A DNA stretch of 36,569 bases, taken from the IMG/VR virus record IMGVR_UViG_2721755726_000003. One strand, 5' to 3'. Positions 2,621 to 35,427 of the stretch are shown piece by piece. The first letter of the stretch is position 1; every line of letters begins with the position of its first letter. A model generated the notes under the pieces. That model searched no databases. It was not told where the DNA came from and saw only the letters and a list, made by a program, of their open reading frames with translations. The DNA comes from a virus (lineage: Duplodnaviria > Heunggongvirae > Uroviricota > Caudoviricetes). A program made the position numbers and the translations under genes.

Positions 2621-2732
2621 AACTGAAGTTGCCCTGAAAATGAAATTTTTTTGCACAACCGCAGAACTTTTCCGCAGGGCATCAGTCTTAATTAGTGCCA
2701 CTGCTTTTCTTTGATGTCCCCATTTTGTGGAG

Positions 2733-2776
2733 CCCATCAACCCCGCCATTTCGGTTCAAGGTTGATGGGTTTTTTG
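2733..2776 (+). terminator. putative rho-independent terminator downstream of ybjL
   Basis: 10-bp stem cccatcaacc/ggttgatggg followed by TTTTTTG; loop is long (17 nt), so modest confidence. Confidence 0.4.
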
Positions 2777-2855
2777 TTGCCTGAAATTTAAGCTGTTTAA
2801 AATCATGATGTTAGAAACACTGTTTTTTAACGATGGCGACAAAATGGCGGCAGCG

Positions 2856-8304: not shown

Positions 8305-8820
8305 TCAGAGGCCGAGGGCGTTGCGGTGCGCTTCCATCAGGTCCACACCGTCCACAATTTCCACCATGTTGATAAGGTCCACTTCATAGAGCACCTCACC
8401 ATTGATGGTCAGCTTCGCGTAGCTGTTGGTACTGGTCACTTTGGTGGTGTTGCTTTCGCCCGTCTTCCACTCGCCGGAATCCACTTCTTTGTGACGTCCA
8501 CGCACGACAAGCTCCACGGCCTGCACTTCCCCGGTATCGTCACGCTGAATAGAGCCGGTAAAGCGCAGCTGGATGCCATCCACCGTGGCTTTACCCATCT
8601 GTTTAAACAGCAGCAATTCAGTACCACCAATGGAAAATTCTGTATCCAGCGCACTGTCATCAAGCCCCAGATCCACATCCACCGCACCCGGCATTCCGCC
8701 GCCGCGATACTTCTCATATTTGCGGGTAAATTTCGGCAGCGTCAGCGACTCAACGATCCCCTGCCAGTTGTTCCCGTCGTTAAACAGGTTCAGGTGTTTT
8801 AATTTGCGTGGTAAAGCCAT
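8305..8820 (-). CDS. FII: tail tube protein FII
   Basis: 171-aa ORF, P2 gpFII-like, ATG start. Confidence 0.85.
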   Translation of the reverse strand: MALPRKLKHLNLFNDGNNWQGIVESLTLPKFTRKYEKYRGGGMPGAVDVDLGLDDSALDTEFSIGGTELLLFKQMGKATVDGIQLRFTGSIQRDDTGEVQAVELVVRGRHKEVDSGEWKTGESNTTKVTSTNSYAKLTINGEVLYEVDLINMVEIVDGVDLMEAHRNALGL

Positions 8821-10144: not shown

Positions 10145-10711
10145 TCAGGGGGATTCATTGATCTTATTTGCCGGAAATTTTCTATAAATGGTAGAAACGC
10201 CTACATCAAAAATCAGTGCAATACGCTGTCTTGATTCTCCGGCCTCGAGTAAACGCCCAATCTGTGCCCACTGTTCGGTGGTCAACTTAGGACGGCGTCC
10301 ACCTACTCTGCCTTTGGCACGAGCTGCAGCCAGCCCTGCCCTGGTACGTTCAACTATCAGTTCGCGTTCCATTTCAGCCAGGGCACCCATGACATGAAAA
10401 AAGAAACGGCCCATTGGGGTACTGGTATCAATACTGTCAGTCAGGCTTCTGAAATTCACACCACGCTGGCGCAACTCTTCTATCAGCGTAACAAGATGCC
10501 GCATACTGCGCCCCAACCTGTCCAGCTTCCAGACAACCAGCGTGTCTCCTGACGATAGTGTCCTGAGTAGTTTTTTCAGCCCCGGTCTGTCGGACTTAGT
10601 GCCACTGATTTTGTCCTCAAAAATCCGCTCACATCCCGCGCAGTTCAGTGCATTACGTTGCAAATCGGTGTTCTGGTCATTTGTTGACACGCGTACATAG
10701 CCAATAAGCAT
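10145..10711 (-). CDS. serine DNA invertase (Hin/Gin/Cin/Pin family)
   Basis: N-terminal MLIGYVRVSTNDQ catalytic-serine motif, resolvase fold and C-terminal HTH; start taken at third codon of track ORF (GGGGGA SD 6 nt upstream). Confidence 0.9.
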   Translation of the reverse strand: MLIGYVRVSTNDQNTDLQRNALNCAGCERIFEDKISGTKSDRPGLKKLLRTLSSGDTLVVWKLDRLGRSMRHLVTLIEELRQRGVNFRSLTDSIDTSTPMGRFFFHVMGALAEMERELIVERTRAGLAAARAKGRVGGRRPKLTTEQWAQIGRLLEAGESRQRIALIFDVGVSTIYRKFPANKINESP

Positions 10712-10778
10712 GATCATCCCCCTGAATAAAAACCGGAGATGATGCCAGTTAGCTGTTACCTCTGCATTTTCTTAAACG

Positions 10779-10804
10779 TTGGTTTGGGAGAAGCGGCAAA
10801 ACGG
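10779..10804. repeat. left inverted repeat and crossover site of invertible tail-fibre segment
   Basis: 26 bp ttggtttgggagaagcggcaaaacgg, perfect reverse complement of 12286..12311; nearby aaacgttggttt resembles gix/hix-type core. Confidence 0.8.
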
Positions 10805-11152
10805 GACGTGGGAACAGGGGAAAATCAGATACCGGATATGGTTTCATTTAGTGGTGTGAGGGATTTTTATGGAAAACAACTTTTGCCAGGAGGGTTGATA
10901 CTCCAGTGGCTGACGATTCCATCAAGTGCAGCAGTCAAAGCTGTAACACTGGATAATGGTAATTATCAGCTGTCAGGCTATAAATGGCCCCAGTCATTTG
11001 GTGTCCTGTTTGCTGTGTTTGCCACAAAAGTTTCTGGCTCGACTAACGAAGCATACGCAATCTCAGTTAATCGTCACTCTACCGATGTAATTGTCACCTG
11101 GAATGCCCGTAAGGCTGATGATGTCCATATTTTAGGAATTGGGAAATTATGA
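10779..11152 (+). CDS. alternative tail fibre C-terminal exon (silent orientation)
   Basis: Plus-strand frame encodes [20 protein letters not shown]..., matching the H crossover motif; no own start needed, would fuse to H after inversion. Confidence 0.7.
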
Positions 11153-11568
11153 AAATGAAATGGTCCCCATCTGTTCAGGGATTTTTCTCTGAAAACAACA
11201 GCGATATTCCCGATGATGCTTTCGATATTGAAGATGCTCTTTATTATGAACTTATGAATGGTCAGAGTACGGGGAAAATTATTATCAATAGCCCGGATAA
11301 CTACCCTGTACTTACTGAATATCCAGCGAAGACACATGAACAGGAAATAGCTGAAGCGGAGGGAATGAAAAATATACTTATTGAACAGGCCAACGATTAT
11401 ATGAACAGTAAACAATGGCCTGGTAAAGCGGCTATTGGCCGGCTGAAAGGTGAGGAACTGGCACAATATAATTTGTGGCTGGATTACCTGGACGCACTGG
11501 AACTGGTCGATACTTCCGGTGCGCCAGATATTGAATGGCCTACACCTCCGGTAACTCAGGCCAGCTAA
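11149..11568 (+). CDS. tail fibre assembly chaperone (alternative set)
   Basis: 139-aa ORF, ATGA overlap with alternative fibre end, C-terminal ...[11 protein letters not shown] motif shared with the minus-strand chaperone. Confidence 0.75.
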
Positions 11569-11935
11569 TCTCAGGAGCCGTCGAAGTGTCGACGGCTTTT
11601 ACTTCTTTTTTGTAGTCTATCCAGGCAGATAGTTTTTCTTTATCTGTACTGCTGATATCACCAAGCATTAATTCCACCCGCCAGTCAGCTGTGACATTAT
11701 CGGCATGAGCAAGTAACTGCATTCGCTGATTTTCAGCACGTGCGACATAATCAATCGCCGGAGATTTCAGTACCGGTAAACCATTTTCATCTGACGTGAT
11801 TAATTTCCCCCCTTCCTGCTGTCCGGCAATTAATTCATTGTATAAGTCTGTACTTATCTCAACAATGTCAGCAGGCATGTCGCTGTTTATACCATCAAAG
11901 AAAAAACCATTAGTCGATTTTGAGAAATAAATCAT
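11540..11935 (-). CDS. G: tail fibre assembly chaperone (expressed orientation)
   Basis: P2 gpG-like ORF directly after H stop; start taken at internal Met (MIYFSK...) rather than track start 11965. Confidence 0.75.
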   Translation of the reverse strand: MIYFSKSTNGFFFDGINSDMPADIVEISTDLYNELIAGQQEGGKLITSDENGLPVLKSPAIDYVARAENQRMQLLAHADNVTADWRVELMLGDISSTDKEKLSAWIDYKKEVKAVDTSTAPEISWPELPEV

Positions 11936-11943
11936 AGATATAC

Positions 11944-13359
11944 CTATACACCGATTGCTACCCAAAAACAGGACCTTTCATATTTGACAATTTCTCCCTG
12001 AGATATACCGCCAACAATTATATAGAACTGTGATTTGCTGATATCAGAACAGTTCGCTATGCCCATTGCAGATATACCAGCCACCGACGTTGTATGTGGC
12101 ACAGCCAACAGCGCAAGTGAACGATTTGGGAATGTTACCGGGTAAGTCACCGTATAGTTTGATGCTCCACTGACAATACCCCACTGAATAATCAGACCTG
12201 AAGGGAGTTTTTGAAAACCCGTTGATGAAAGTGAACTGGCAAACGCCGCCATATCCGGAATTTGGTTTTGCTCATTACCTACATTCCGTTTTGCCGCTTC
12301 TCCCAAACCAAGGTATGTGAGAAGACCAGCTACATCCTTTCCACTCAAATTGGTAAGCGTATTGTCCAGCGGTTGTTTACCTGCCAGCGCATTAAGCATT
12401 GTCGTGGCAAAGTTCGGATCATTCCCCAGTGCCGCCGCCAGTTCGTTCAGTGTATCCAGTGCAGCAGGTGCAGAACCCACCATTCCTGCAATCGCCGATT
12501 TCACAAAAGCCGTAGTGGCAATCTGTGTATTGTTGACCGACTGCGCCGCCGTGGGGGCTGTTGGCGTTCCGGTGAGTGCCGGACTCGACAACGGTGCTTT
12601 TAGTGCCAGCGCATTGTTAATGGTGGTACTGAAATTCGGATCATTGTTAATGGCTGCGGCTATTTCTTTCAGCGTGTCCAGCGTGGCTGGCGCACCATTA
12701 ATAAGGGCCGTCAGTGCCGCCTGTACAAACGCAGTGGTCGCAACCTGCGTGGTATTATTCCCCGCCGCTGGCGTTGGCGCTTTGGGGGTTCCGGTAAATG
12801 TCGGGCTGGCTTTTGGCGCGTACTGTGAATGCGGGTCCGGTGCGGCAAGATGTTTTGCCATCTGATCATCCGCGTACACCTTCAGCTCCAGTGCCTTGTC
12901 ATCCACATACTTGCGGGTTGCCAGCACTACAGCAGGGTCGATTTTCAGGGTGATATTGTCCGTGCTGCTGGTAATCAGCACCATGCGCACGGTCTGAGTG
13001 CGCCCGCTACCTTCAGCCAGTTGCGGCTTATAGCTTTCCGGGCAGTTGCCCACGGCAATCAATGCCCCGGACTCATCAAACAAGCCCACTTCACGTATCC
13101 ACCAACCGCCCTCGTTTTCAGGGATCACCTGTTCGGCAATAATCTGGCTGCTGTTCTGCGGGTCGATATAAAGCATATTCAGCGCAGCCCGGCGTTTCTC
13201 ATTTACCAGTGCCGTCTGCTTTGCGTCCGGCGTTGGCAATACTCCACCGCCATCGCCCACCGCCATATGGGTAATTTTTAGCGGCACACCGAGCGCGGCG
13301 GCGCTGGCAAGTTTCGCCGCGCCAATATCCGTCAGCAGGGTATAAAATTTTGTGCTCAT
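11944..13359 (-). CDS. H: tail fibre protein H
   Basis: 471-aa ORF with conserved P2 gpH N-terminus, tandem about 70-aa repeats, variable C-terminus inside invertible segment. Confidence 0.85.
   Translation of the reverse strand: MSTKFYTLLTDIGAAKLASAAALGVPLKITHMAVGDGGGVLPTPDAKQTALVNEKRRAALNMLYIDPQNSSQIIAEQVIPENEGGWWIREVGLFDESGALIAVGNCPESYKPQLAEGSGRTQTVRMVLITSSTDNITLKIDPAVVLATRKYVDDKALELKVYADDQMAKHLAAPDPHSQYAPKASPTFTGTPKAPTPAAGNNTTQVATTAFVQAALTALINGAPATLDTLKEIAAAINNDPNFSTTINNALALKAPLSSPALTGTPTAPTAAQSVNNTQIATTAFVKSAIAGMVGSAPAALDTLNELAAALGNDPNFATTMLNALAGKQPLDNTLTNLSGKDVAGLLTYLGLGEAAKRNVGNEQNQIPDMAAFASSLSSTGFQKLPSGLIIQWGIVSGASNYTVTYPVTFPNRSLALLAVPHTTSVAGISAMGIANCSDISKSQFYIIVGGISQGEIVKYERSCFWVAIGV
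12286..12311. repeat. right inverted repeat and crossover site of invertible tail-fibre segment
   Basis: Perfect 26-bp inverted copy of 10779..10804; lies inside H coding sequence at the LGLGEAAKR motif. Confidence 0.8.
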
Positions 13360-23568: not shown

Positions 23569-24602
23569 TGGGAAAGAGTAAGAAGAACCGCGCTGCGGCG
23601 ACGAAACAGATCCAGCTTAAAAGTCAAACTACAGCCGAAGCATTCAGCTTCGGCGATCCCGTTCCTGTTCTGGACCGCCGAGAACTGCTGGATTATGTGG
23701 AATGCGTACAGATGGACCGCTGGTATGAGCCGCCCGTCAGCTTTGACGGACTGGCGCGCACCTTCCGCGCTGCCGTTCATCATAGTTCCCCGATTGCAGT
23801 AAAGTGCAACATTCTGACCAGCACCTACATCCCTCACCCGCTGCTCAGCCAGCAGGCTTTTTCGCGTTTTGTGCAGGACTATCTGGTATTTGGTAACGCC
23901 TACCTGGAGAAACGCACGAACCGCTTCGGTGAAGTTATCTCCCTTGAACCTGCCTTGGCAAAATACACCCGACGCGGGTTAGACCTGGATACCTACTGGT
24001 TTGTGCAATACGGTATGACCACGCAGCCATATCAGTTCACGAAAGGCAGCATCTTTCATCTGATGGAACCGGACATCAACCAGGAGATCTACGGCCTGCC
24101 CGGTTATCTTTCTGCTATTCCATCCGCCCTGCTCAACGAGTCTGCCACGCTGTTCCGCCGCAAGTATTACATTAACGGCAGTCATGCAGGCTTCATCATG
24201 TATATGACCGACGCCGCGCAGAACCAGGAAGATGTGAACAACCTCCGCAACGCGATGAAAAGCGCCAAAGGCCCTGGCAACTTCCGCAACCTGTTTATGT
24301 ACTCGCCTAACGGCAAAAAGGACGGGCTTCAGATCATCCCGTTGTCAGAAGTCGCAGCGAAAGATGAATTTCTGAACATCAAGAACGTGAGCCGGGACGA
24401 CATGATGGCTGCACACCGCGTACCGCCTCAGATGATGGGAATTTTGCCGAATAATGTTGGGGGGTTTGGGGATGTGGAGAAGGCAAGTCGGGTATTTGTT
24501 CGTAATGAATTAATACCTTTGCAAAAACGTTTCGAAGAATTAAATTTATGGCTAAAAAATAATATTATTACATTCAAAGAATATCAACTATCCCTAGACT
24601 AA
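23565..24602 (+). CDS. Q: portal protein Q
   Basis: 345-aa ORF, P2 gpQ-like, ATGA overlap with P. Confidence 0.9.
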   Translation: MMGKSKKNRAAATKQIQLKSQTTAEAFSFGDPVPVLDRRELLDYVECVQMDRWYEPPVSFDGLARTFRAAVHHSSPIAVKCNILTSTYIPHPLLSQQAFSRFVQDYLVFGNAYLEKRTNRFGEVISLEPALAKYTRRGLDLDTYWFVQYGMTTQPYQFTKGSIFHLMEPDINQEIYGLPGYLSAIPSALLNESATLFRRKYYINGSHAGFIMYMTDAAQNQEDVNNLRNAMKSAKGPGNFRNLFMYSPNGKKDGLQIIPLSEVAAKDEFLNIKNVSRDDMMAAHRVPPQMMGILPNNVGGFGDVEKASRVFVRNELIPLQKRFEELNLWLKNNIITFKEYQLSLD

Positions 24603-24649: not shown

Positions 24650-26059
24650 TTACTCATCTACTCTGATTTTTTGTTTTTTATTATTTTGAGTTAAGACATT
24701 TATGGTAATAGATGTATACGGATGAAAGTCAGGCACTATACTTTTAACCTCTCCATTTTCAAGAAAATGATGTGCTATTGAAGGAAATAAATCAGGATCT
24801 ACAGGATATTTAGCATTAGGATTATGATACATATTTAAACCTTCTGCCCATGTTTCTGTAATATCGCCTTCTTTCACTTCAAAACTAAATGCTGCTGGAT
24901 ATAATGCCTCTGGGTCATGATCATGGCAGTAACCACTCCTAAATAATCTAAGGTCACTTCTTCCAAAACCAGCCAGTTTTCCCATCCGATTAAACTTCGA
25001 TATAGTACCACTATTAGAACTAAGGACGGCCGAAATATTTTCAGACTCATCCAAGAAGAAAAAGCCTGAAGGAATTTCCTTTTTCTCAAATTGATGCGAT
25101 ATAATTTTCTTAGTTGCTAAACTGTAACATCCATCTTCAGATTTAACATGCTCATAGCGAATACCATAAAGATACTGCCAAAGTGCACTATGGGACCAAA
25201 TCATAGAGTTTGGTTCATGAAAATCAGCAATTGCGAAAATTAAAGGATTCCCCTTAACATGTTCTAGATCCCAGTATCGAGTTTTCTTTTTCAGTTTAGA
25301 ATAGAGAGAACTTCCAAATTTAATCGGCATATAATTCTCTATTTTCTCTAGCAATTCTTCCTTACTTTTAGGTTCAGATAGCATTTCAGATGATTGATTA
25401 ATATCATTCCCTGTTGGATTAACCGTTACAGCTTCAATGCAAATAGTATTACCATACTTACGTGCCACATAATCAGGGGCATTAAACTGCCTATCTAGCC
25501 AAAAGTGTTCCTCTCGTAAATATGCGAAAAGATATAACTCCCATAGCCGGGCATCAAAACCTGTTGTCTGAAACTGCTCTATAAAATTCCCGTCGACATC
25601 CTCAAAATGATTCATCATTTCCTTGATTATCCCTGTTGCAGGCGACCAGTTCGCGTATTTACCAAATAATGAAAAATGATGATGAAGTTTATCTGGTGTA
25701 ACTATAGGTGTGAATAAATCCATTGCTTTATAAGTTTCATCACCTTGTGGAAATACTTTTACGTTTAATTTAGTATGCTTCCGCATTAATTTCTTTAGTT
25801 TTGCTCGTGCAGAATTCATTTCTGAAACACTAGTAAATAGGTCAATACATCTATATCTCCCACTTAAGTCTCTTGCTAAAACAATACCGCTATAATCTTC
25901 ATCGATTTGATCCAATAATAGTGCCCCTAGCAGGAACTCTCTCGGACTACAGTACCACTCAAACTCATAGCCTAAAAGTTCAGTATTTGGCATTCTGGTC
26001 CAATCAACAAAAGCATTAAACCTCTCTTTACTCATTTTTTTTATATCAAGAAAAGACAT
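24650..26059 (-). CDS. hypothetical 469-aa protein, AT-rich accessory gene (candidate defence/exclusion cargo)
   Basis: Long uninterrupted ORF, ATG start with GAGGT SD, visibly AT-rich against GC-rich phage core; no family recognised by eye. Confidence 0.75.
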   Translation of the reverse strand: MSFLDIKKMSKERFNAFVDWTRMPNTELLGYEFEWYCSPREFLLGALLLDQIDEDYSGIVLARDLSGRYRCIDLFTSVSEMNSARAKLKKLMRKHTKLNVKVFPQGDETYKAMDLFTPIVTPDKLHHHFSLFGKYANWSPATGIIKEMMNHFEDVDGNFIEQFQTTGFDARLWELYLFAYLREEHFWLDRQFNAPDYVARKYGNTICIEAVTVNPTGNDINQSSEMLSEPKSKEELLEKIENYMPIKFGSSLYSKLKKKTRYWDLEHVKGNPLIFAIADFHEPNSMIWSHSALWQYLYGIRYEHVKSEDGCYSLATKKIISHQFEKKEIPSGFFFLDESENISAVLSSNSGTISKFNRMGKLAGFGRSDLRLFRSGYCHDHDPEALYPAAFSFEVKEGDITETWAEGLNMYHNPNAKYPVDPDLFPSIAHHFLENGEVKSIVPDFHPYTSITINVLTQNNKKQKIRVDE

Positions 26060-31461: not shown

Positions 31462-31803
31462 TTAATTCGGCATGGTTAGCCGTCTGGGAAATAAGCTCAC
31501 CACTGCACGAAAATGATTCATTGCTTTAATCAACTCCCGCTTTTCGTCAGTGGTCAGCTCATTAATGCTGATGCTATGACGTTCAGCTGGAATTTTTGCC
31601 ATAAAGAATATGGCAGCCAGTGCCCGTTTATTTTGTTCATTATTGATATCCCGTGGATCACGCATATCTTTAATAAACCGCTCAAGCTCTGACTCAATAT
31701 TCAAACCAAAAACTTTCGCCCTTAACTCCGCAATATGATTAAGTCCATTCAGGCGTTCACCGGGTCTTAATGGAACAGTCGCCGCAGCGCCTTCAATAGC
31801 CAT
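31462..31803 (-). CDS. hypothetical early protein
   Basis: 113-aa ORF in early operon, position comparable to 186 dhr region. Confidence 0.5.
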   Translation of the reverse strand: MAIEGAAATVPLRPGERLNGLNHIAELRAKVFGLNIESELERFIKDMRDPRDINNEQNKRALAAIFFMAKIPAERHSISINELTTDEKRELIKAMNHFRAVVSLFPRRLTMPN

Positions 31804-32826: not shown

Positions 32827-33768
32827 ATGTCAACTAATAAAATCACATTTCGCCATATTGAAGATCATCTGAAAGCCATGGTCATGCAGAATCGAGGAGG
32901 GCAAAAAGTCATTGAGAGAATACTCATGGCCTATGGTTTCAAATCACGCCAAGCATTCTGTAACCACCTTGGTATTTCACAAAGTACAATGGCTAACAGA
33001 TATGCACGCGATACCTTCCCTGCTGATTGGGTTGTTATATGTTCAATGGAAACTGGCGCATCAATCGAATGGTTAGCATTTGGTTTAGATGCTGAAGAAG
33101 GAGTGCCAGTTCCTTCGCCAGAACGGCATGCTGAAAAACAGTCTGCAGATGAATTTTGCAATGAAGTTCACACCCCCACGATAAAGTTCGATAATGAAAA
33201 CCACATGGATTTCACTCGAGGGGGTAAAGCAGCAATAGAGCGAATTGTTAAGGCTTACGGTTACAAAACGCGCCAAGCCTTAGCCGATCACCTTGGTATC
33301 TCAAAAAGCACATTAGCTACACGATACATGCGAGACATTTTTCCGGCAGACTGGATCATCCAATGCTGTTTAGAAACAGGAGTGTCTCTCGAGTGGTTAT
33401 CTTTTGGTAAGGGGCATTCCAATCAAACAAAGCTAAGTGGGTTGCTTACATTAGACTGCTATGATCTACGTGACGGCAAACTTACTGATCAAAGAGAATT
33501 AATCGTTTCGAGCGAAATTTTACCTCAAAATTTAAAACATCCCTATATAGTTAATTCCGCAAATGATTCATATATCATTAGCAAAGAGGAGTATCTTAGC
33601 GATGGTCTATGGTTAGTATCTATTAACGGAGAATTTACTTTTAGAGACATATTTAAACTTCCAAACAATCGCATCCGCGTTGAAAACACAAAATATAGCT
33701 TTGAATGCGATAAAGAAGATTTGGAATTTAATAATAAAGTTAAAGGAATAATTAGAAAAAGGGTTTAA
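32827..33768 (+). CDS. cI: CI immunity repressor with tandemly duplicated N-terminal DNA-binding domain
   Basis: Two about 67-aa repeats (residues 22-88 and 130-196) each resembling the 186 CI N-terminal domain, then a C-terminal domain. Confidence 0.7.
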   Translation: MSTNKITFRHIEDHLKAMVMQNRGGQKVIERILMAYGFKSRQAFCNHLGISQSTMANRYARDTFPADWVVICSMETGASIEWLAFGLDAEEGVPVPSPERHAEKQSADEFCNEVHTPTIKFDNENHMDFTRGGKAAIERIVKAYGYKTRQALADHLGISKSTLATRYMRDIFPADWIIQCCLETGVSLEWLSFGKGHSNQTKLSGLLTLDCYDLRDGKLTDQRELIVSSEILPQNLKHPYIVNSANDSYIISKEEYLSDGLWLVSINGEFTFRDIFKLPNNRIRVENTKYSFECDKEDLEFNNKVKGIIRKRV

Positions 33769-33770
33769 CA

Positions 33771-34820
33771 ATGAGCTTTACGAAAACTATTGAATTTGCA
33801 AACTATACCTTAAATTTTGGAGAGGACAAAGTTCTCTTAGATGCTTTTGATTGCATTGTTTTTCCTTCATTTTTCGCACAAAAATACGTTAGAAAATTTA
33901 AAGATACAGAATATTTCTTTACTGACACAAAAATTATTACGTTAGATACTACAGATTCAGATTTTATTGGTCCTATAGTTCCAACAATTGCATTGTGTGG
34001 CCGCATTATAAAAAAGACCATATTTAAACGAGATCAAATATTTCAAGATGGTCAATTAATTCGAGATCACAGGACGCTAGAAAGTCACCCCAGCTCTATT
34101 TTTATTCTTATGCTTAATGAGCACAGATTAATGCTTTGCAAAGAGGTTTCTGGAGCCCCTACCCTAGAAGAATTTGAAAATACTAGCAAGTATTGCCTTG
34201 CACAGCGATATAATTCTTTTGTGGATTACGAAGTAAAAAAAAATAAAAGAATTAGAAAGAAAAAATCATACATTGATCGACTGTATAAAAAAGATATTTA
34301 TCGTAAACTAGGAGCCCCCAAATTACGGGTTACCCCCTTAACAGACCCAAGATCATTGAGCAATTTTGTTGAACTCTTTTCTGTTGTTAATAGATTATCA
34401 ATTGAGTTATTGCCAACAAATAGTGAAAATATATCTCTTGATGGCTTCTGGAGGAAAATTGAACAAGAAAAAGAAGAACTTAATAGTAGTAAAGCTCAAT
34501 TAGTATACACAAATAAAAATGAAGATGGTTTAAATTCTGAGGCCGTCATTCAAAAAACAACAAGTGCAACCCGAATGGCCAACTCTAAAGTAATTATCAG
34601 TGGTAAAGATGAACACGGAGCAAGGCTATCAGGGAATAATGATAGTTTTACTCTAAAAGCATCAAGGCCACAACTTAGTTCTGATTTGGAAAGAGCTGCT
34701 CAAGAGGCGTATTCTGCATTCACAGAATTAAAGGATGAAGGAAATATTATTATTCCAGAACGTGAAGATTATACTAAAATTTTTTCCAAGTTAACATCAA
34801 TAATTTCTAGGTGGCTATAG
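33771..34820 (+). CDS. hypothetical 349-aa soluble protein, component A of cI-linked accessory cassette
   Basis: ATG 2 nt after cI stop; AT-rich; Lys-rich central segment; no recognised motif. Confidence 0.7.
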   Translation: MSFTKTIEFANYTLNFGEDKVLLDAFDCIVFPSFFAQKYVRKFKDTEYFFTDTKIITLDTTDSDFIGPIVPTIALCGRIIKKTIFKRDQIFQDGQLIRDHRTLESHPSSIFILMLNEHRLMLCKEVSGAPTLEEFENTSKYCLAQRYNSFVDYEVKKNKRIRKKKSYIDRLYKKDIYRKLGAPKLRVTPLTDPRSLSNFVELFSVVNRLSIELLPTNSENISLDGFWRKIEQEKEELNSSKAQLVYTNKNEDGLNSEAVIQKTTSATRMANSKVIISGKDEHGARLSGNNDSFTLKASRPQLSSDLERAAQEAYSAFTELKDEGNIIIPEREDYTKIFSKLTSIISRWL

Positions 34821-34821
34821 T

Positions 34822-35427
34822 ATGAAATATACATTCAACCCAGAAGATCTGACCAAAGAGCGATCTTTGCATGATGTTTACAAATTAACTAAAAAAATAA
34901 AGGTCAATTCATTTGACTTTTATTTCACATTATTGTTAGTGATATTATTATCTATTAATGCTTTTTGTCTATCTTCATCACCAGAGTTAATTTCATCTAT
35001 TAGACAATGGACACCTTTAGTATTCGGATTCACTACAACAACATTAGGTTTTTTAATTACTGGATTTACAATATTTGCAACCATAAATAAACCTGAACTT
35101 TTCCTTTCATTAATGGAGTATAAGCATCCATTATACGGGATAAGTTACTTAAAATATGTTTATGGTGTATTTATGAGAGTATTTATATATTTCATATTTT
35201 GGTCTGTTATCTATCTTTTAGTCCTTCTTTTCGGGCAAGAAAATGGATTGGCTACAAAATTACTCAGAGCCTTAATGTTTTCTCATTGCACTAAAGTTGT
35301 TGGAGTTCAAATACTATATATACTCGTAGGAAGCAGTGCAGTGTTCCTTGTATTAACTTTAAAAACTTTCCTGTTCAATATTTATGCTATGTTAATGCAA
35401 TCTCTACGCTGGGAAGTAGAAAGATAA
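34822..35427 (+). CDS. hypothetical 201-aa membrane protein with four predicted TM helices, component B of cI-linked accessory cassette
   Basis: ATG 1 nt after upstream stop with AGGTGG SD; four hydrophobic stretches of about 20 residues; AT-rich. Confidence 0.7.
   Translation: MKYTFNPEDLTKERSLHDVYKLTKKIKVNSFDFYFTLLLVILLSINAFCLSSSPELISSIRQWTPLVFGFTTTTLGFLITGFTIFATINKPELFLSLMEYKHPLYGISYLKYVYGVFMRVFIYFIFWSVIYLLVLLFGQENGLATKLLRALMFSHCTKVVGVQILYILVGSSAVFLVLTLKTFLFNIYAMLMQSLRWEVER

Follow-up and report, generated by a model that had tools for sequence, protein, structure and literature searches.

The window analysed here, the whole stretch of 36,569 nucleotides in virus record IMGVR_UViG_2721755726_000003, is a P2-like prophage of E. 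coli (Peduoviridae, Cartapus-like). The prophage looks complete: it extends from ogr to the integrase and has the full set of P2 late genes. In the G–FI slot, which fun(Z) occupies in P2, lies a DNA invertase gene, as the original prediction had stated. Beside it, the tail-fibre gene H extends into a segment where ORFs and Pfam domains agree with the two convergent cassettes that had been proposed, each composed of a tail-fibre tip and an assembly chaperone. The features of the locus are the following.

10145–10711, minus strand: DNA invertase gene; the 188-aa protein begins MLIGYVRVS, and the ORF goes on to an upstream ATG at 10717
10622–10693, minus strand: candidate recombinational (Fis) enhancer at +19..+90 of the invertase CDS, homologous to the annotated P1 cin enhancer
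10767–10792, plus strand: invertase-proximal 26-bp site, pix/gix/cix-like, TTTTCTTAAACG TT GGTTTGGGAGAA, with the crossover dinucleotide at 10779–10780
10779–10804: left arm of the perfect inverted repeat, TTGGTTTGGGAGAAGCGGCAAAACGG, encoding (L)GLGEAAKR
10781–12309: invertible segment; the crossover dinucleotides enclose 1529 bp
10781–11152, plus strand: alternative tip Hv', 123 codons, unjoined to H in the present orientation
11149–11568, plus strand: Tfa', chaperone of the alternative tip (Pfam Caudo_TAP)
11573–11600, plus strand: terminator-like hairpin and T-run directly past the Tfa' stop (consensus scan only)
11540–11935, minus strand: Tfa (P2 gpG analogue), 131 aa, the chaperone expressed in the present orientation; the ORF reaches a TTG at 11965
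11944–13359, minus strand: tail-fibre gene H, 471 aa, with a Phage_tail_fib N-terminal domain and Gp53-like_C
11944–12309, minus strand: variable tip Hv, currently joined to H
12286–12311: right arm of the perfect inverted repeat, CCGTTTTGCCGCTTCTCCCAAACCAA
12298–12323, plus strand: H-proximal 26-bp site, TTCTCCCAAACC AA GGTATGTGAGAA, with the crossover dinucleotide at 12310–12311
12310–13359, minus strand: constant part of H, codons 1–350

The invertase carries the two expected Pfam domains, Resolvase (PF00239, E 2e-53, residues 5–137) and HTH_7 (PF02796, E 1.5e-15, residues 140–183), and matches the Mu Gin structures 3UJ3 and 4M6F over residues 1–184 (E 9e-93). Its identity reaches 84.8% with e14 PinE, 77.4% with P1 Cin and 75.7% with Mu Gin, the characterised invertases being 75–82% identical among themselves. 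The assignment to the Gin/Hin family of serine invertases therefore holds at the level of the subfamily (76–85% identity to Gin, Cin and PinE, with DRLGR kept), while the nearest characterised relative is e14 Pin and not Gin or Hin. In the alignment with 3UJ3 and 4M6F, the catalytic Ser9, whose mutation would have spoken against a working enzyme, is intact, the conserved Arg and Asp residues (R7, D64, R65, R68) are kept, and the motifs YVRVSTNDQ and KLDRLGRS are identical to those of Gin. His106 and Met114 are as in wild-type Gin, 3UJ3 having Val at position 114. In Hin, K47, K/R48 and K/R51 of helix B together with Q151, R154 and L155 of the first helix of the DNA-binding domain are reported to be conserved only in Fis/enhancer-dependent invertases (PMC3798978); their equivalents are preserved here as K46, K47 and R50 (LKKLLR) and as the Q, R and L of QIGRLL, aligned to QISRLL of Hin. 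In RefSeq, the homologues are given the start that makes a gene of 567 nt. A promoter scan between the recombination site and the start codon returned nothing convincing for the invertase gene.

The inverted repeats are exact. TTGGTTTGGGAGAAGCGGCAAAACGG and CCGTTTTGCCGCTTCTCCCAAACCAA are perfect reverse complements of 26 nucleotides at the positions originally predicted, far beyond what chance would provide (about 1.5e-7 such pairs expected in a window of this size), and both copies encode G-L-G-E-A-A-K-R in the tail-fibre frame, again as predicted. Inward of the perfect repeats a weaker complementarity brings the match to 79% over 75 nt (10767–10841 against 12249–12323). As the sites of a switch, the repeats needed a correction: they do contain sites of the gix/cix/pix type, but the actual sites lie 12 bp further out, at 10767–10792 and 12298–12323. 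These are imperfect palindromes in inverted orientation, with a TT core when read from the outside to the inside, and they align half-site by half-site with Mu gix, with P1 cix and its annotated crossover, and with the e14 sites. Written as outside half, core and inside half, P1 cix reads ...CTAAACC TT GGTTTAAGAGAA and Mu gix reads TTATCCAAAACC TC GGTTTACAGGAA; the invertase-side site differs from the pinE-side site of e14 by a single nucleotide. By this alignment the crossover point falls where the perfect repeat ends on its outer side, at the central TT/AA dinucleotide, and the P1 record annotates its crossover at the equivalent dinucleotide. On the H side the dinucleotide corresponds to positions 2–3 of Leu350 of H. 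Numerous E. coli matches to the segment stop at window positions 12311–12323.

A search for a third recombination site in and near the fibre region, with up to two mismatches allowed, gave only two copies of GGTTTGGGAGAA, and matches elsewhere in the window stay at chance level (6 found, 2.9 expected). With two sites only, the arrangement is that of a binary switch and not that of a shufflon or other system with at least three sites and more than two arrangements, such as R64 Rci, p15B Min or the three-repeat locus of EPEC.

The Pfam domains of H are well supported (Phage_tail_fib N-terminal, E 4e-65; Gp53-like_C, E 6e-14), and inversion of the segment in silico preserves its reading frame. 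Hv' fuses in frame to H codons 1–350 and gives a protein of 473 aa in place of 471 aa, as expected if inversion swaps the fibre tip. In strain N17 and in Cartapus the tail fibre is annotated in this form (473 aa, 1422 nt). The promoter-distal ORF annotated at 10739–11152 on the plus strand starts outside the segment, and its start at 10739 is probably spurious. Hv and Hv' are alike over their first 44 aa (61%) and completely divergent beyond. Hv' matches phrog_2557 (E 1.5e-34). In the PDB, the gp53-like fibre 4MTM was weakly matched by Hv (E 1e-4), and nothing significant turned up for Hv', so that no receptor can be inferred. The chaperones both belong to Caudo_TAP (E 2e-23 for Tfa, 3e-22 for Tfa') and share 33% identity; the RefSeq homologue of Tfa is annotated at 396 nt. 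In tblastn searches against the cassettes of Mu (S/S'), P1 (S/S') and K-12 e14 (StfP/StfE), neither tip had a match at E<1e-3, and the chaperones alone are related. The hairpin behind Tfa' consists, as far as a consensus scan can tell, of a 12-bp stem, 6 of its pairs being GC, and a T-rich tail after it.

The first part of the invertase gene may also contain a recombinational enhancer. The P1 cin enhancer is annotated at record positions 31678–31749, which is cin +19..+90, and the candidate at 10622–10693 occupies the same position. Over this stretch, identity is 56/72 with P1, 52/72 with Mu and 63/72 with e14, values confounded by coding constraint. Conservation at synonymous sites, counted as codons identical in all four genes, is 5/19 in the enhancer stretch and 10/93 in the rest of the gene, a mild excess in the expected direction but in small numbers. 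Two candidate 15-bp Fis cores (G-N13-C) fall at 10676–10690 and 10627–10641, 49 bp apart from start to start, the second being GC-rich at its centre, and the exact placement of both is uncertain; the Fis sites of Hin are spaced 48 bp. G-N13-C 15-mers at CDS +22 and +71 are common to gin and pinE, that at +22 being absent in P1. By analogy with the known enhancers, this stretch would act as a Fis-dependent enhancer.

Both orientations of the segment occur in nature. Among complete E. coli genomes with the full-length segment, 5 carry the present orientation and 13 the flipped one, each assembly giving one consensus orientation, which disposes of the idea that a single orientation is ever observed. 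The closest comparison is offered by N24 and N17, two near-clonal cerebrospinal-fluid isolates that carry the same prophage: over 26,101 bp they differ by 2 SNPs and by an exact inversion between the repeats, and are otherwise identical. Their breakpoints can be placed only to somewhere within the perfect repeat. Cartapus from strain LF82 matches window positions 10776–12323 in inverted orientation at 99.4%. Phage 500465-1, otherwise 99% identical, has other cassettes in exactly the interval that the repeats enclose. In other E. coli strains (FORC_042), the module of invertase and segment is joined precisely at the H-side crossover site to baseplate and fibre genes that are not P2-like but resemble those of e14 and Mu.

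Taken together, we consider that this P2-like (Peduoviridae, Cartapus-like) prophage has, with a probability of about 0.9, a functional binary switch that works by DNA inversion of the Gin/Cin/Pin type. The occurrence of both orientations in complete genomes and the exact inversion between N24 and N17 indicate indirectly that the invertase inverts the flanked segment. Following the models established for Hin, Gin and Cin, dimers of the 188-aa invertase would bind the two inverted 26-bp sites, and a synapse would form between both sites and an enhancer, bound by Fis, within the initial ~90 bp of the invertase gene. Staggered 2-bp cuts at the central TT/AA, rotation of one subunit pair by 180 degrees and religation would then leave the 1529-bp segment inverted. 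The crossover lies within codon 350 of H. The constant N-terminal part of 350 aa is retained by the late operon and would therefore be joined to one of two unrelated tips of ~120 aa, behind each of which comes an assembly chaperone belonging to it. The late promoter would read only the cassette adjoining the constant part. Either state would yield an entire fibre (471 or 473 aa), and a lysogen population would therefore release two virion types, presumably recognising different receptors. The host-range phase variation originally proposed would thus stand as an alternation of two fibres, as in Mu and P1, but not as an on/off switch, since both states are "on". For Cartapus, the nearest named phage, no indicator host was known (PMC9928086).

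It could be argued that the prophage holds a frozen relic, inversion having ceased and the orientations found in databases being old, vertically inherited alternatives. The single consensus orientation of each complete assembly would fit such a view. We regard it as improbable, for the opposite orientations of N24 and N17, separated by 2 SNPs in 26.1 kb, imply a very recent inversion, and the invertase has kept all its catalytic and Fis-contact residues, next to perfect repeats and two cassettes with intact ORFs. Even less credible is homologous recombination by RecA across the inverted repeats of 26 bp (75 nt if the imperfect part is counted), with the adjacent invertase irrelevant. The N24/N17 breakpoints are compatible with it, as they lie somewhere within the perfect repeat and sequence alone cannot tell the mechanism. 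However, 26 bp of identity is about the lower limit for RecA-mediated exchange. Moreover, the repeat has its edge exactly at the core dinucleotide of sites in which both half-sites match gix, cix and pix, 12 bp beyond the repeat included, and at a distance of 68 bp there is a conserved cognate invertase together with an enhancer homologue.

The switch might also serve mainly the host, inversion yielding a fibre protein that blocks the adsorption of other phages. A precedent exists in K-12, where a Pin-family invertase (PinQ) flipping the e14 P segment was reported to inhibit T2 adsorption through the chimeric StfE2 (PMC12529663). The sites described here are almost identical to those of e14, which makes cross-action between the elements plausible. 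Yet the prophage looks complete with all P2 late genes, so that H, in the late operon, should be silent in lysogens; the sequence bears no sign of lysogenic expression, and the tips show no relation to K-12 StfE and StfP. We regard a chiefly host-serving role as improbable. Somewhat less remote, though still doubtful, and compatible with the functional switch, is a further role for the pix-type sites as portable junctions, at which an invertase acting in trans would recombine co-resident prophages and swap receptor-binding cassettes. The junction in FORC_042 and the cassette replacement in 500465-1 suggest that such in-trans exchange is possible. If it does take place, chromosome rearrangement or effects on superinfection could follow (compare the report on PinQ/StfE2 in PMC12529663).

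The switch at this locus belongs to an already documented kind, found in Mu, P1, e14, Fels-2 and the P2-like prophages of EPEC, and nothing in it is novel; mechanisms of this class have been familiar ever since Mu G, P1 C and e14 P, and P2-like prophages have likewise been shown to use them. Its value lies first in annotation. The ORF 10739–11152, called "hypothetical" or "gp53-like", is the alternative tail-fibre tip and no separate gene, and assemblies of strains with such a prophage may differ or be heterogeneous at the tip locus for a trivial reason. The description should also be useful for host-range work on Cartapus-like phages in ExPEC and AIEC, although it opens no new question.

Among known systems, the P segment of e14 in K-12 with its invertase Pin is the closest. 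Its invertase is the most similar of those characterised (84.8%), the inner half-sites are identical (GGTTTGGGAGAA), both systems have a TT core, and the invertase-side sites are 1 nt apart. The order of the constant fibre part, tip and Tfa, Tfa' and tip', and a co-directional invertase is shared as well, and the enhancer stretches are identical at 63/72 positions. The differences concern the element itself, defective in the case of e14 and a complete P2-like myovirus prophage here, the constant part, which is P2 gpH-like here, and the tips, unrelated to StfP and StfE by tblastn (E<1e-3), while the chaperones are 32–49% identical.

The likeness to the G segment of Mu and the C segment of P1 put forward in the original prediction is borne out by both in-frame fusions, the convergent tip and chaperone cassettes and the crossover inside the fibre gene. 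With Gin and Cin the locus shares 26-bp sites with a central 2-bp crossover, cassettes of the S/U type, an invertase 76–77% identical and, at a position equivalent to that of the enhancer in the 5' coding region of the Mu and P1 invertase genes, a candidate enhancer. As in Mu, the invertase lies downstream of the fibre gene and is co-directional with it, at ~68 bp from site to start here and 67 bp in Mu; in P1, by contrast, cin is transcribed towards the segment. The segment has at most half their length (1.5 kb, against 3.0 kb in Mu and 4.2 kb in P1), its tips are of ~120 aa and of the Gp53-like_C type instead of long Sv tips, and its core is TT, as in cix and pix, where gix has TC.

Loci of other P2-like prophages (Fels-2 fin, EPEC E2348/69, Cartapus) agree in phage type and in position between G and FI, and are set apart only by the present orientation and a sequence divergence of a few percent. 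The very same segment, 99.4% identical and turned the other way, occurs in Cartapus of E. coli LF82, next to a gene annotated "DNA-invertase, Mu Gin homolog". In EPEC cultures, reproducible inversion at the population level was found in P2-like prophages by sequencing and PCR (PMC4272514); one EPEC locus is a three-site, shufflon-like system, unlike the two sites present here. In Salmonella, PMC7953296 describes a fin-adjacent tail-fibre inversion of Fels-2 between LT2 and LT7. The flagellar phase variation system Hin/hix of Salmonella shares the invertase subfamily, the Fis-contact residues (PMC3798978) and the expected mechanism, through a Fis/enhancer invertasome. Hin, however, flips a promoter and turns fljBA on or off, whereas the prophage switch described here would flip a coding junction, with both states productive.

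The gene layout put forward in the original prediction, with a recombinase, a tail fibre, two chaperones and a second fibre tip, was borne out by open reading frames and protein domains. The features of the locus are as follows, Tfa and Tfa' being the chaperones of the current and alternative tips.

Features of the tail-fibre locus
10145-10717, minus strand: serine recombinase with Resolvase and HTH_7 domains
10739-11152, plus strand: ORF whose product resembles a fibre C-terminus
11149-11568, plus strand: Caudo_TAP chaperone (Tfa')
11540-11965, minus strand: Caudo_TAP chaperone (Tfa)
11573-11600, plus strand: strong terminator-like hairpin (12-bp stem and T-run) after the Tfa' stop
11944-13359, minus strand: P2 gpH-like tail fibre (H) with Phage_tail_fib N-terminal and Gp53-like_C C-terminal domains

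When 10779-12311 is reverse-complemented in silico, codons 1-350 of H fuse to the alternative tip, giving an uninterrupted product of 473 aa directly followed by Tfa'; the current orientation gives 471 aa and then Tfa. The two tips are 61% identical over their first 44 residues with no detectable similarity beyond, and the chaperones share 33% identity. The 'hypothetical protein' ORF opens with the ATG at 10739, which is not within the invertible segment and is probably an ORF-calling artefact. On the strand opposite the currently expressed tfa, the hairpin sits within the 3' end of that gene and would terminate the late operon upon inversion of the segment; no counterpart was predicted downstream of that tfa.

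The perfect 26-bp repeats noticed earlier are present, 10779-10804 being TTGGTTTGGGAGAAGCGGCAAAACGG and 12286-12311 its exact reverse complement, and the chance expectation for such a pair in a window of this size is about 1.5e-7. In a repeat search they form the core of a 75-nt inverted repeat, 79% complementary, at 10767-10841 and 12249-12323. Both junctions were laid out as outside half-site, core and inside half-site for comparison with the sites of Mu Gin (gix), P1 Cin (cix) and e14.

Recombination sites of the window and of known systems
Window, invertase side (10767-10792): outside TTTTCTTAAACG, core TT, inside GGTTTGGGAGAA
Window, H side (12323-12298, complement): outside TTCTCACATACC, core TT, inside GGTTTGGGAGAA
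Mu gix: outside TTATCCAAAACC, core TC, inside GGTTTACAGGAA
P1 cix, S side: outside TTATCCAATACC, core TT, inside GGTTTAAGAGAA
P1 cix, cin side: outside CAATCCTAAACC, core TT, inside GGTTTAAGAGAA
e14 site, pinE side: outside TTTTCATAAACG, core TT, inside GGTTTGGGAGAA

Together with the crossover annotated in the P1 record at the equivalent central dinucleotide, this alignment indicates that the perfect repeat comprises the crossover dinucleotide, the inner half-site and 12 more bp of common coding sequence. The functional 26-bp sites reach 12 bp beyond the perfect repeat, where the two copies agree at only 7 of 12 positions; that a site extends outside the perfect repeat is also usual for gix, cix and hix, the Hin site. 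The crossover TT occupies positions 2-3 of H Leu350. No third recombination site was found in or near the locus, which is therefore a two-state system.

The recombinase itself aligns over residues 1-184 with the Mu Gin crystal-structure sequences 3UJ3 and 4M6F (E 9e-93); its stretches YVRVSTNDQ, with the catalytic Ser9, and KLDRLGRS match them exactly. Aligned globally, it shares 84.8% identity with e14 PinE, 77.4% with P1 Cin and 75.7% with Gin; identities among the known members range over 75-82%. Certain residues are uniquely conserved among Fis/enhancer-dependent invertases (PMC3798978), and all of them are present here: the helix-B basic positions (Hin 47, 48, 51) are K, K and R, and positions Q151, R154 and L155 of helix 1 of the DBD are Q, R and L, QIGRLL aligning with Hin QISRLL. 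The ATG at 10711 is a more likely start than that at 10717, because it has the better GGGGG ribosome-binding-site spacing and RefSeq homologues start there.

The P1 record places the Cin enhancer at cin +19..+90, and the corresponding codons of the window's invertase (10622-10693) are identical at 56/72 positions to P1, 52/72 to Mu and 63/72 to e14. G-N13-C 15-mers at CDS +22 and +71 are common to this gene, gin and pinE. Such similarity proves little, because the stretch also codes for the region in which the protein is best conserved; at amino-acid-identical positions, four-way codon conservation is mildly higher inside it (5/19) than outside (10/93). By homology, 10622-10693 is the probable enhancer, about 120 bp from the nearer site, and the layout matches those of Mu and e14.

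Among the grounds on which the original prediction would be refuted was the observation of a single orientation only; this did not hold, both being present in E. coli. When 5,426 complete E. coli genomes were queried with window 10500-12600, the as-is form was found full-length at 98.4% identity or above in five (MS20657, N24, FDAARGOS_1372, G3 and LD91-1), and the form flipped in silico full-length in 13 records, including N17, N64, LF82 (two assemblies), MS 57-2 and GPEC709. The cerebrospinal-fluid isolates N24 and N17 have consecutive assembly accessions, and in both the prophage occupies the same place in the chromosome. Apart from two SNPs, the only difference between their loci across 26,101 bp is exact reverse-complementation of what lies between the repeats, which argues for a recent and precise inversion.

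Phage 500465-1 is 99.3-99.6% identical to the window up to 10801 and from 12297 on, and its tip and chaperone cassettes, unrelated to the window's, are replaced precisely between the 26-bp repeats. In Cartapus, the phage of E. coli strain LF82, the segment is inverted and 99.4% identical, with flanks at 95.7-96.5%. The flanks, though not the cassettes, are also present at about 96% in related Klebsiella prophages (KP12, Kp48xx series). E. coli FORC_042 (NZ_CP025318.1 1220224-1236037) has the window's invertase and segment (99.3%). Near position 8816 of its locus, exactly where the H-side crossover site lies, the segment meets an e14/Mu-like baseplate module that contains YmfQ, gp47/J, gp46, V, a DNA circularization protein and an additional tape measure; P2-like FI-D tail genes are retained on the other side. 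The arrangement is chimeric, and the recombination site is its breakpoint. By these comparisons the repeats mark where an exchangeable receptor-binding module begins and ends, consistent with known tail-fibre mosaicism.

Window 1-24526 is 97.7% identical to the N24 locus, where grxA-ybjM-ybjL precede a P2-like prophage ordered ogr, D, U, T, E, FII, FI, invertase, cassettes, H, I, J, W, V and on to the portal. The invertase was rightly placed where P2 has Z/fun, because fun(Z) occupies the G-FI interval in P2. The nearest named phage is Cartapus (Peduoviridae, Elveevirus), which has been described as a relative of P2 that resembles Fels-2 (PMC9928086). The RybB sRNA gene (2700-2778, plus strand; Rfam RF00110, 105 bits) directly adjoins the ogr end; the prophage insertion lies downstream of ybjL and at rybB or next to it, and the other attachment site lies past the window end.

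Other genes of the window were also observed. A 469-aa protein (24650-26059, minus strand), which lacks any Pfam domain, is matched by PD-T7-1, an anti-phage defence model of PADLOC (E 1e-196). Its gene sits between the portal gene and the DinI/gpA genes, in the cargo slot that holds old and tin in P2, and the N24 prophage departs from the window just before it, the alignment ending at 24526. An unusually long CI-type repressor ORF (32827-33768, plus strand, 313 aa) has two separate Phage_CI_repr HTH matches and a Phage_CI_C domain, reflecting either a mis-called start or a duplicated N-terminal domain. Between it and the integrase, adjacent plus-strand ORFs of 349 and 201 aa (33771-34820 and 34822-35427) gave no Pfam or PADLOC match and only a weak one to a PHROG of unknown function; their possible roles are prophage cargo or lysogenic conversion.

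Overall, the original observation is confirmed and its interpretation supported, with small mechanistic corrections. According to a recent report (PMC12529663), a Pin-family invertase can make an adsorption-blocking fibre protein from e14; such a role is conceivable as an additional function, but nothing here supports it for the window's intact prophage. By every feature tested, the system belongs with the inversion systems of the Gin/Cin/Pin/Hin type, and databases already list the Cartapus homologue as 'DNA-invertase, Mu Gin homolog'. This is a known feature, and its arrangement in P2-like prophages has likewise been described: two such prophages of EPEC E2348/69 show reproducible population-level inversion (PMC4272514), and the tail-fibre segment adjoining fin inverts in Fels-2 (PMC7953296). 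Among characterised systems, the e14 P segment with Pin is the nearest to it.
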